From Eledone cirrhosa (lineage: Eukaryota), in NCBI GenBank assembly GCA_964016885.1, contig CAXHJY010001082.1, forward strand, positions 1 through 64,000: DNA of 64,000 bases, in the 5' to 3' direction. The notes under the pieces were generated by a model, which was not told the DNA's origin, ran no database searches, and was given only the letters and a program-made list of their open reading frames with translations. The position numbers and the translations under genes were made by a program. Below, piece after piece: positions 16,125 through 62,140 of the stretch; positions within the stretch are counted from its first letter, which is position 1, and each line of letters begins with the position of its first letter.

Positions 16125-16218
16125 ACCCCTTGAGAAGATCGGCTATTTAAATACCAGGATAAATGTTCATTTAGTCCAGAATTAGCCGTCGAAACGGCTT
16201 GAGCTCAGCTGTCGGGGT
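16125..16218 (+). ncRNA. Type I hammerhead ribozyme with variant U3:A8 core (family A)
   Basis: Stem I ACCCC/GGGGT; core TTGAGAA (16130-16136); stem II GA(T)CGGCTA/TAGCCGTC; GAAA (16191-16194); stem III ACGGCT/AGCTGT around palindromic GAGCTC; GUC site, predicted cleavage after 16213. Confidence 0.75.
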
Positions 16219-16928
16219 CTTACTGGTTCCTATATACGTATATATATATATATACATGTAATATATATATGTATATACGTATATATATATATATATGTAT
16301 ATACGTATATATATGTATATACGTATATATATACATGTAATATATATATGTATATACGTATATATATATATATATATATACAATATATATATGTATATAT
16401 ATATATGTGTACATATATATAATGTATACATATATATAATGTATACATATATATAATGTATAGATGTATATATATATATATATATAATATATATATTTGT
16501 ATATATATATATATATAATATATATATGTGTATATATATTATATATATGTATATATATATAATATATATATGTGTATATATGTATATATATATAATATAT
16601 ATATGTGTATATATGTATATATATTTAATATATATACGTATATATATATTTAATATATATATATATGCATATATATATAATATATATATGTGTATATATA
16701 TATTTATATATATATATAATATATATGTGTATATATATATTTATATATATATAATATATATATGTATATATATATTTATATATATATAATATATATATGT
16801 GTATATATATATTTATATATATATAATATATATATGTATATATATATTTATATATATATAATATATATATGTGTATATATATATTTATATATATATAATA
16901 TATATATGTATATATTACATATATATAT

Positions 16929-17652: not shown

Positions 17653-17718
17653 TATTTTATTATACATATTTCAGAGGTACTGAGCTACTTCAACAGTACG
17701 TCCTCATCAGATAAAATA
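17653..17718 (-). ncRNA. Type I hammerhead ribozyme, minimal stem III
   Basis: Minus strand: TATTTTAT-CTGATGA-GGACGTACTG..CAGTACCTCT-GAAA-TATGTA-TA-ATAAAATA; 8-bp stem I and near-palindromic stem III. Confidence 0.85.
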
Positions 17719-34710: not shown

Positions 34711-35272
34711 GTGTGATTATATACTTATCTATATATGTATATATGTACGTGCATGTTTGTTGTATGTGTGTATATGTATGTATGATGTAAGGATGTATGT
34801 ATGCATGTATGTATATGTGTGTGTGTATATATGTGTGTGTGTATGTATGTATATGTGTCTGTATGTGTGTATGTATATGTGGGTATGTGTGTGTAAGTAT
34901 GTAGTGTGTATGTGTATATATATATATATATATGTGTGTGTGTATGTATATATATATGTGTATGTGTGTGTGTGTGTGTATATATATATGTGTATGTGTG
35001 TGTGTGTGTATGTATATATGTGTGTGTGTAGGTATGTATGTGTGTATGTATATATATTTATATATGTGTGTGTGTGTGTGTATGTATATATGTGTGTGTG
35101 TAGGTACGTGCATATGTATGTATGTGTGTGTGTGTATATGTATATATATATATATGTGTCTGTGTATGTGTGTGTATGTATATATGTGTGGGTGTATGTA
35201 TGTGTGTGTAGGTACGTGCATATGTATGTATGTGTGTATGTGTATATATCTCTCTCTCTATATATATATATA

Positions 35273-35465
35273 TAACGAAGGAAATGTGGTAAGGAACCAG
35301 GTGGACCATAACGCACCAAAGTACTCAATACTTAGGGTAGTAGAGTGGGTAATAGGAACGAGTAGGACCCCGAAGGCTGAGCTCAAGCCGTTTCGACGGC
35401 TAATTCTGGACTAATTAGCCGTCGAAACGGCTTGAGCTCAGCCGTCGGGGTCCTACTCGTTCCTA
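35273..35465. mobile_element. Family A head-to-head inverted terminus pair (two HHR 3' halves)
   Basis: Left arm (minus) carries the HHR 3' half plus ~100 nt of downstream tail; right arm (plus) AATTAGCCGTCGAAACGGCTTGAGCTCAGCCGTCGGGGTCCTACTCGTTCCTA; junction near 35411-35414. Confidence 0.85.
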
Positions 35466-35522
35466 TATATACATATATATAGATATATGTGTATTGGTGT
35501 GTATGTGTGTGTAGTTACGTGC

Positions 35523-49837: not shown

Positions 49838-50439
49838 GTGTACAGATATTTTTGCATACACTATAACAAAATATAAACAAAGGTATTTATTTCACGAGGC
49901 TCGATAAGGATAAATATATATCAAATATATAAGAACCCTAGAGCAAATCCCGAGCAACGCCGGCCCGTTCTGCTAATTATTACTAATATATATCTATCTA
50001 TCTCTCTATATATATATATATTGCTAAAAGAATCGAACGGACGGGATGTTTGAGATGTCTGTTTTCAGCTCTGTAGGTTCTCTGATGAAGTTACGTCCCT
50101 TGTCACAGGAAAAACGGTTAAGTCTTTATCAGGGGATTCGTCCACAGAGCGTGTCAGTAATGGAAAGCCCAACGATAGCTCTGTTCATATTTTCTTCTTC
50201 CTTTCTTTTTCTTTAAGATCTTACCTCGTTAATCTAGAATGTCGGAATGCCCGAATGCCAGAATGCAAGAATACCATTCGTAAAATATTCTGAGGTTCTT
50301 TTACTGTCATTTTCAAGAACACTAACGACACCAACTCTTCTAATTGATATATTATGTAATAACCAGAAAAAAATTCCCAACGTTTAAATGAAACACAGTA
50401 TTACAAATGGAAGAAAGATTTCCCGAAGGGTTTCAACCG

Positions 50440-53465: not shown

Positions 53466-53526
53466 TTTAATTTACCAGTGGTTTCTTGAAAGCAAGCAAA
53501 ATTGGCTTTCAGTCATCAGAATGAAA
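53466..53526 (-). ncRNA. Type I hammerhead ribozyme, inverted twin of 53551-53611
   Basis: Reverse complement gives the same core and stems with one stem I mismatch; homology extends over ~53440-53635. Confidence 0.8.
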
Positions 53527-53550
53527 AAAAAATAAAATACACCAGGATTT

Positions 53551-53611
53551 TTTCATTCTGATGACTGAAAGCAAATTTTGCTTCCTTTCAAGAAACCACT
53601 GGTAAATGAAA
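53551..53611 (+). ncRNA. Type I hammerhead ribozyme
   Basis: TTTCATT-CTGATGA-C TGAAAG..CTTTCA A-GAAA-CCACTGG-TA-AATGAAA; 7-bp stem I; GUA site at 53602-53604. Confidence 0.85.
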
Positions 53612-56100: not shown

Positions 56101-56177
56101 TCTGTTACGCGCGTTTCGCAGATGAAAAGCTCAAGGCCACCTATAGAAGTTTTGAACCCGACTGTTCATCAGACTGA
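56101..56177 (-). ncRNA. Type I hammerhead ribozyme, partly degenerate
   Basis: Minus: TCAGT-CTGATGA-ACAG..CTGC-GAAA-CGCGCG-TA-ACAGA; palindromic ACGCGCGT stem III; mismatches in stems I and II. Confidence 0.7.
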
Positions 56178-61200: not shown

Positions 61201-61524
61201 CCAATTTCTGTTCAATTCCACCGTGTGTTCGTCGGTGATATGTTTCGTGACTTCGTGTTAAAAATACTTTGTTGAGTTAAATTATCTAATCTTCTGAATG
61301 TAAAGCTGTTTGAATCTTTCAGTGAAGTCTGTTAATATTTTATCGTATGTCTAAGCATAATTTGAACATCAAAATATTATGTAGATAGTAAAAATATGAT
61401 TTCATAACAGTCAAAATAGATTGCTTATTACATTGTACATATAGCTTATTACGTTTTTAGTTCGTTTCAGCCGTCTATGGTAAGTTCATGATAGTGCAGC
61501 ATCTTATATATATATATATGTATA

Positions 61525-61705
61525 TAACGAAGGAATTGTGGTAAGGAACCAGATGGACCATAACGCACCAGAGTACTCAATACTTAGGGCAGTAGAGTGG
61601 GTAATAGGAAAAAGTATGACCCCGACGGCAGAGCTCAAGCCGTTTCGACGGCTATTTCTGGACTCCAGAAACGGCTTGAGCTCTGCCGTCGAGGTCATAC
61701 TTTTT

Positions 61706-61709
<4 letters not shown>
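61525..61709. mobile_element. Family A head-to-head inverted terminus pair, second locus
   Basis: Same organisation and near-identical tail as 35273-35465; junction near 61663. Confidence 0.85.
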
Positions 61710-61736
<27 letters not shown>

Positions 61737-61742
<6 letters not shown>

Positions 61743-61988
61743 ATAAATATTTCGTATCTCCGAAGAAATACGGTTTTAGGAAGCCGTAGCTATGCAAACA
61801 CCGGGGGGGGGGGGGGGGGGGGGCTAACGCCCTCTGGTGATGTCCAGCAGAAGCAAGGAGGCAACCATCTATGCATTTCAGGCTTAACTGGCCTTCGTCA
61901 GGACGGTCCCTCCCACCGCTTGCGACTGCTGCACTAGAAGACAGGCGAAAACCGTATTTCTTCGGAGATACGAAATATTTATACAAAT
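61737..61988. repeat. Perfect 41-bp inverted repeat enclosing 170 bp of GC-rich sequence
   Basis: 61737-61777 is the exact reverse complement of 61948-61988. Confidence 0.9.
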
Positions 61989-62066: not shown

Positions 62067-62140
62067 TATTCCATTACCCAAGGTTTCACGAAGTTAGAGG
62101 ATTCTAACAGAGACGCCTTGTTCGTTCATCAGATGAAATA
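62067..62140 (-). ncRNA. Type I hammerhead ribozyme
   Basis: Minus: TATTTCAT-CTGATGA-ACGAA..TTCGT-GAAA-CCTTGGG-TA-ATGGAATA; 8-bp stem I with one GU pair, 5-bp basal stem II. Confidence 0.85.

Follow-up and report, generated by a model that had tools for sequence, protein, structure and literature searches.

In a 64,000-nucleotide stretch of Eledone cirrhosa DNA (the window), a Penelope-like element (PLE) has a hammerhead ribozyme motif at its 3′ end, in which two 3′ strands, one in stem II and one in stem III, are nearly the same sequence. The initial annotation had proposed that this duplication could make the ribozyme a conformational switch, since a single strand of the motif could pair with either of the two. 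The question raised by the locus is therefore whether the repeated strand gates cleavage in a regulated way, dampens it passively, or has no effect on folding at all.

The element in the window (Table 1) is 99.96% identical to the 3′ 2,561 nt of an intact 3,531-bp tandem unit at locus L032. The 717-aa ORF of that unit is a single frame that encodes a reverse transcriptase (RT) together with a GIY-YIG endonuclease (EN) at the C terminus; these domains were read from motifs, and a Pfam scan assigned no family to the ORF. Compared with the motif list in excerpts of PMC8557442, the ORF has RWR (RWK with K changed to R), DKT in place of DKG, a CxCX5C linker, and CxxC and CxH around the EN. Insertion in (TA)n, tandem copies, inverted copies and a tail are further traits of the Hydra clade, and on these sequence features the element is a member of that clade of PLEs. 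The Naiad clade was considered and rejected on the C-terminal position of the endonuclease and the DKT motif.

The family is abundant, with at least 2,049 homologues of the 717-aa ORF among 8,000 candidates scored. All 40 scored matches to 16110-16231 (414 candidates) were 100% identical, which argues that subfamily A is young. Genome-wide, a 19-nt tail pattern occurred 44,293 times (control, 0), and a 5′-core pattern counted without subfamily A occurred 3,160 times (control, 11), although the latter required CRGCTA and barred G at position 7 and is alone no measure of stem II conservation. Most of 95 tail-anchored copies, read by eye, were miniature inverted pairs in TA repeats, and TA repeats dominated a repeat search of the window. 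Two other features were also recorded. A fragment of a non-LTR retrotransposon C terminus with a PD-(D/E)xK-like motif (NRPDIVVWD...VVEISCP) adjoins the element at 12519-13085 (−), and inverted short repeat arms of the AATGGTAATT...GCAGTCAGAAT family surround a TA tract at 2700-3890 and are likely a different Penelope-like end.

From position 16125 the window reads ACCCC TTGAGAA GATCGGCTA, followed by a 34-nt loop region and then by TAGCCGTC GAA ACGGCT TGAGCTC AGCTGT C GGGGTC, with 12 more bases before a TA repeat. This sequence has the features of a type I hammerhead, namely, a core at positions 3 to 9 with a 3:8 pair (UUGAGAA), G10.1-C11.1, GAAA and an NUH triplet (GUC). The region first annotated, 16137-16213, extends from G10.1 to C17, so that the 5′ half of the core (16130-16136) and stem I fall outside it. 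The predicted minimum-energy fold (MFE) of the motif is a type I hammerhead, with a z-score against shuffled sequences of just −0.29. Rfam gave no match in the window at the gathering score, and there was no hammerhead among the 150 of 903 weak Rfam matches listed, a list filled by microsatellite matches.

Stem I was predicted to pair with a probability of 0.74 to 0.98 in contexts of 113 to 132 nt and of 0.01 to 0.03 with 110 more nucleotides upstream. Of 57 distinct complete copies, 47 have U3:A8 at positions 3 and 8, while 6 have C3/A8 and 4 have U3/G8. Stem II shows two-sided changes between subfamily C (three copies) and the others, from G-C to A-U at pair 2 and from T-A to A-T at pair 8, and at pair 7 it has G-C against T-A in subfamily D. 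In the 57 copies, no pair of stem III changes on both sides; this stem contains a G-U pair in subfamily A and has lost its final pair in D. A candidate pseudoknot between ACCAG of loop II and CUGGU after stem I was rejected by eye because B1 alters the 3′ side while the loop is unaltered.

Table 1. Features of the window discussed in the text, with the evidence or remarks for each
Feature	Position	Strand	Basis or remark
5′-truncated Hydra-clade Penelope-like element	13673..16233	+	Lies between TA-rich repeats; match to the L032 unit
RT and GIY-YIG ORF, 3′ part	13676..15026	+	Intact counterpart of 717 aa at L032:1618-3771
Stem I, 5′ strand with upstream extension	16119..16129 (ACCCC, 16125-16129)	+	MFE, pair probabilities
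Catalytic core, 5′ half (UUGAGAA, U3:A8 replacing C3:G8)	16130..16136	+	Sequence
Stem II (G10.1-C11.1, CGGCUA/UAGCCG) and long loop II, with inner hairpin 16157-16177	16137..16190	+	Fold; compensatory changes in subfamily C
Loop II pile-up of copy 5′ ends; initiator-like TCATTT (A16169) and TTAGTC (A16173)	16167..16179	+	End mapping
Rival hairpin AGCCGU-CGAA-ACGGCU, G12-A13-A14 within the tetraloop	16184..16199	+	Folding, shuffles, comparison
Core GAAA (G12, A13, A14, A15.1)	16191..16194	+	Sequence, fold
Stem III ACGGCU/AGCUGU with palindromic UGAGCUCA	16194..16212	+	Fold
Predicted cut site GUC/G	16213..16214	+	Copy 5′ ends accumulate here too, at 16214
Stem I, 3′ strand, and short 3′ end of element; likely first RT start	16214..16233	+	Copy ends
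Miniature head-to-head pair, not a ribozyme	35269..35466	tail arm −, short arm +	Both arms end in loop II
Miniature head-to-head pair, D-type subfamily	61521..61710		Same build as the 35.4-kb locus
Lone short arm ending in loop II	8425..8481	−	Sequence match

Hammerhead-like motifs of other families (CUGANGA...GAAA) lie at 53487-53600 (both strands), 17660-17710 (−), 61880-61901 (−), 62085-62132 (−), 56115-56172 (−) and 50082-50112 (+). The motif at 53.5 kb is an inverted pair with a whole ribozyme in both arms and belongs to a family (F178) tied to another intact Hydra-type ORF. At loci L170-L199 the genome holds at least two more intact Hydra-type families (frames of 714 to 719 codons) that have canonical C3:G8 hammerheads with a short stem III.

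The near identity of the two 3′ strands was borne out, with TAGCCGTC at 16183-16190 in stem II and CAGCTGTC at 16206-16213 in stem III. So was the alternative pairing, in which ACGGCT (16194-16199) turns upstream to form a perfect 6-bp hairpin with CGAA as its loop. The stem III loop is also self-complementary, as had been noted, and contains the palindromic 8-mer TGAGCTCA (16200-16207); the predicted energy of stem III as a duplex (−26.3, compared with −4.9 per hairpin) was discarded as evidence of dimers, as any hairpin gains as a duplex in such a comparison. The family copy at 35.4 kb, which had been annotated alongside this one, does have two AGCCGTC strands but is not a complete ribozyme, having neither the core nor a true stem II 5′ strand. 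It consists of two loop II-truncated arms joined head to head, which gives the inverted arm the look of a stem II 5′ strand. Complete copies of its subfamily were found elsewhere (L413, L417 and L424).

The two folds are predicted to be close in energy. Alone, the hairpin was predicted at −7.5 kcal/mol and stem III at −4.9 kcal/mol. When the whole motif was constrained to one fold or the other, secondary structure prediction gave minima of −27.7 kcal/mol for the active fold and −27.3 kcal/mol for the rival, a difference of 0.4. In the rival fold the stem II 5′ strand, once freed, pairs with the stem III 3′ strand. The rival hairpin is predicted to be populated, making up 0.237 (24%) of the ensemble, and 0.89 with 110 more nucleotides upstream, in ViennaRNA folds that omit tertiary contacts and Mg2+, both of which favor the active fold. 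For an RNA that starts at A16173, the predicted share was 0.18 at 60 nt and 0.75 to 1.0 at 140 to 240 nt.

A selected, gated switch is one way to read these values. In that scenario, the hairpin would keep the ribozyme inactive while the RNA is transcribed and until it is refolded by the element's protein or by another RNA, and would stand in for the dimer lock of relatives with a short stem III. It is consistent with the predicted dominance of the hairpin in chains ending at 16199 to 16209 (0.71 to 0.85, falling to 0.09 at 16212), although these shares are equilibrium snapshots and not kinetics. It is also consistent with the improbability of the repeat by chance, in that a hairpin share of 0.237 was reached by just 3 of the 400 sequences in which the six stem II pairs had been shuffled in order and orientation. 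Furthermore, a PLE hammerhead of the anole cleaves only with protein present (excerpts of PMC11167929).

Comparison of copies bears on the same question. The six hairpin pairs are intact in subfamilies A, B and D, where the strands with two partners are unchanged and the fixed changes sit in the stem III 3′ strand, as a switch would predict. The strand identity is therefore conserved in three subfamilies; it is weakened in C, which turns one hairpin pair into U-G while compensating stem II, and this speaks against a switch. None of the six hairpin pairs changes on both sides in the 57 copies, a result that also counts against selection on the hairpin but has little power with four close subfamilies. 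The predicted hairpin share over 39 complete copies ranged from 0.00 to 0.99 (median, 0.24; above 0.5 in 17), being high in B1 and below 0.1 in 10 of the 12 D-type copies, which a tuned switch would not readily explain. Finally, a comparable hairpin of at least 5 bp was present in none of 30 distinct hammerheads of other families (4 bp in 2 of the 30), for which 28 of 77 metagenome loci had a hammerhead and to which four families of this genome were added. The stem III segment was 8 to 10 nt in all 30. Taken with the shuffles, this comparison implies that the repeat did not arise by chance and yet is confined to one lineage. At two loci (L113 and L115), stems II and III of an unrelated Hydra-type hammerhead share the 6-nt sequence CCTGTA, which gives a weak 4-bp rival hairpin (−1.2 kcal/mol).

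The absence of two-sided change and the unstable share, judged on four close subfamilies that give little power, fit a by-product of duplication or fold-back that dampens folding better than they fit a tuned switch. The proposal of a conformational switch thus stands as regards two predicted folds of nearly equal energy and is not supported as regards selection or gating, which we regard as unlikely. We favor, with a probability of about 0.55, the reading that the repeated strand gives an inactive fold of nearly equal predicted energy and lowers cleavage passively; a regulated switch is less likely than either a passive damper or a by-product.

The 5′ ends of genomic copies may offer a record of the RNAs that were reverse transcribed. 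We counted these ends in tail-anchored samples; in subfamily A, where 7,535 places matched, 90 of the 100 listed first were mapped against a natural copy, with the duplicated locus L322 and the triple tandem L354 kept in the counts. Among the matches listed there were 88 tail arms, 7 with the whole ribozyme, 54 starting at 16169-16179, 18 at 16182-16211 and 9 at 16214-16215, and 61 short arms, 47 starting at 16169-16179 and 4 at 16214. No arm of either kind among the matches listed started at 16140-16168. The ends therefore pile up at two places, one in loop II and one at the predicted cut site.

Within the first pile-up, TCATTT and TTAGTC are close to the initiator TCAKTY, a Drosophila consensus (excerpts of PMC4581360). 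The same pile-up is seen in subfamilies B1 and C, in which loop II differs and YAGTY is kept, although the C-type loci (L033-L062) were chosen by a query starting at the loop II junction, so that the sharp +1 peak in C is inflated. Of 13 arms whose first base is A at +1 or +6, 9 are preceded by a G that has no template (p ~0.008 under an assumed base mix of the inserts); the raw test (10/14 against 6/32, p 0.0016) is biased by exclusion of the native upstream base, and the adjusted figure leaves out L386. An extra G at the 5′ end of a copy is expected from a reverse-transcribed cap. Together, the initiator-like pile-up, its recurrence in B and C and the untemplated G suggest that transcription probably starts inside loop II.

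An unrelated hammerhead-bearing family (F170) had no loop II pile-up in 30 tail-anchored copies, of which 26 keep the ribozyme and upstream flank, 1 starts in loop II and 3 start just upstream of the core; three ORF-bearing F170 copies start in stem II. A step in contig depth at loop II was dropped as evidence, being confounded by subfamily divergence upstream. At L354 (G000:C1:27009560-27010102), the loop II-truncated copy is in tandem with a 257-bp spacing and resembles a retrozyme-like array without a whole ribozyme.

At the second pile-up, 7 of the 88 tail arms among the matches listed start at the cut site after removal of two indel artifacts (L383 and L365). With 7 whole-ribozyme and 7 cut-site tail arms among those matches, the counts fit a ribozyme active on part of the RNAs. 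All four short arms starting at 16214 partner tail arms starting at 16214-16215 (Fisher p 3e-5, artifacts included). Short head-to-head junctions number 335 genome-wide, against 21 in the control. By hand count of the 49 listed of these 335, both arms lie exactly at G16214 with untemplated letters between them in 16, and both lie within 2 nt in 5; one arm runs 2 to 3 nt past the cut in 8, and 6 are of other kinds. The remaining 14 are blunt or nearly blunt (CCCC/GGGG type) and are ambiguous, as a 2-nt microhomology could make them. Mixed pairs, with one arm from loop II and one from the cut site, occur among C and D copies and imply that the states of paired arms sometimes differ.

Some junctions have further peculiarities. 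Short iterated copies of the arm end, as from repeated slippage or end-joining synthesis, are present at L384, L386, L054 and L318, and poly(A)/poly(T) runs at L345, L404, L412 and L449. At L258, L268 and L284, subfamily-diagnostic positions are not alike in the two arms of a single insertion, so that two different template RNAs may have been used.

Both pile-ups might instead mark places where RT stalled at RNA structure, the loop II inner hairpin and the base of stem III, and so reflect neither a transcription start nor a cut. The 3′ strand of the inner hairpin is predicted to span precisely 16169-16177, the ends are scattered over 11 nt, and F170, without the pile-up, would make the effect as lineage specific as the repeat. 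However, the inner hairpin is weak, and in subfamily C it lies elsewhere while the ends still cluster at YAGTT. Nor would stalling supply the extra G in front of arms that begin with A. Had RT stalled at stem III, C16213 should have been copied, yet the exact junctions stop at G16214, and independent stalls would seldom be expected in both arms of one insertion. We therefore consider stalling a doubtful explanation. The 16214 ends are most simply read as marking a template RNA whose physical end was the hammerhead cut, and we consider this quite probable. On this evidence the cut-site copies likely record cleavage in living cells. Cleavage in trans, read-through transcripts and protein assistance may each have contributed.

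If transcription starts at A16173, the repeated strand would also lie within a downstream promoter region, and this allows another explanation of its conservation, namely, that it is kept as promoter DNA (+11 to +33) while the hairpin is a by-product that is not populated and folding of the ribozyme is normal. Counted from A16173 as +1, CGAA occupies +18 to +21, the place of the MTE/Bridge element, and the DPE set DSWYVY agrees at 5 of 6 positions with TGAGCT at +28 to +33 (consensus from excerpts of PMC4581360). Normal folding would agree with the active fold being the MFE and with the cut-site copies, which imply that cleavage likely happens. These motifs are short and degenerate, however (the MTE matches at 7 of 12 positions), the isolated hairpin is predicted to be more stable than stem III, and half of the cuttable tail arms carry the whole ribozyme, so that we hold this explanation to be improbable, if somewhat less so than a selected switch.

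Passive damping would fit into a cycle of the following kind. Transcription would start in loop II of the upstream repeat, so that the RNA 5′ end has half a ribozyme and would not cut itself there. RT would start 17 to 19 nt and ~99 nt downstream of the cut site: short ends fall at 16231-16233, and the tail ends ~80 nt beyond them, at one position in 80 of 92 cases. The abundant head-to-head miniature pairs with ends in loop II would come from priming near the RNA 5′ end. If priming took place in the downstream repeat, which has the whole ribozyme, uncut RNA would yield long copies, such as that in the window, and cut RNA would yield tiny copies starting at 16214. Because the cut severs the priming sites from the ORF, a partly misfolding ribozyme might be tolerated or mildly favored, and the rival hairpin could replace the need for a dimer as a brake on cleavage. 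A single duplication or fold-back likely created the repeat, at a time when stem III in this lineage became long enough to fold without a partner. A bolder version, in which a strand-swap lock replaced the dimer lock, the start moved into loop II so that the RNA begins with half a ribozyme and carries a complete, gated one at its 3′ end, the element's own protein flips the fold and hundreds of insertions log cleavage to the nucleotide, seems to us unlikely.

The role of the hammerhead in endonuclease-bearing PLEs has been called unclear (PMC8557442), and no cut-site RNA reads were obtained for the one element tested (PMC11167929). For these reasons, as far as excerpts of the two papers go, we consider the copy ends the more valuable result. 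Insertions with both arms from the cut site would be evidence of cleaved RNA that was reverse transcribed in germ line cells, and the count of cut-site copies can be applied to any genome with young PLEs. The rival hairpin would provide a small, clean test of how a ribozyme competent as a monomer spares the link between ORF and priming site. The element and its ribozyme are of known kinds; the repeated strand and the cut-site-anchored copies appear to be new. No report of either was present in the literature searched, subscription papers falling mostly outside that search, and the motif was not found in the supplement file of PMC8557442 that was searched, a file to which the Hydra ribozyme list (file S2) may not belong.

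The closest known systems are compared here as they are described in excerpts of the cited papers. The element resembles the Hydra clade of Craig et al. (2021; PMC8557442) in its single RT and C-terminal GIY-YIG ORF with RW(K/R), DKT, CxCX5C linker, CxxC and CxH, in its (TA)n targets, partial tandems, inverted truncated partner and tail, and in having a hammerhead in the terminal repeat. It differs in its 3.5-kb unit (described units are generally <3 kb), its ~80-nt tail (described tails are 30 to 40), its U3:A8 core, a stem III of 5 to 6 bp, the repeated strand and insertions that are mostly miniature pairs. The PLE hammerheads of Cervera and de la Pena (2014; PMC4209133) are likewise type I, with a short helix I, a large helix II, G10.1-C11.1 and a palindromic helix III loop. 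The U3-A8 variant is known from the Cercyon elements of Schistosoma, and a processing role has been proposed for PLE hammerheads without in vivo evidence (PMC4209133). Metazoan PLE hammerheads have a minimal helix III and are thought to need dimers (PMC4209133; PMC6765202), and activity as a dimer joined through a palindromic helix III has already been described, as has assistance by protein (PMC4209133; PMC11167929). In contrast to the metazoan examples (PMC4209133), stem III here is predicted to fold as a monomer and to compete with a hairpin.

In the green anole, the Poseidon element PAc (Frangieh et al., 2024; PMC11167929) also has two internal RT starts that set the tail, AT-rich targets, extension of both DNA strands and a hammerhead just upstream. 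Whereas PAc gave no cut-site RNA reads and its cleavage was dispensable in vitro, genomic copies here start at the cut site. Penelope of Drosophila virilis (Schostak et al., 2008; PMC2377424) has a TATA-less internal promoter in the terminal repeat with an initiator and a DPE, as the present element appears to have. Its hammerhead, however, follows the start site and lies at the end of an intron (PMC4209133), whereas the start that we propose here would split the ribozyme.
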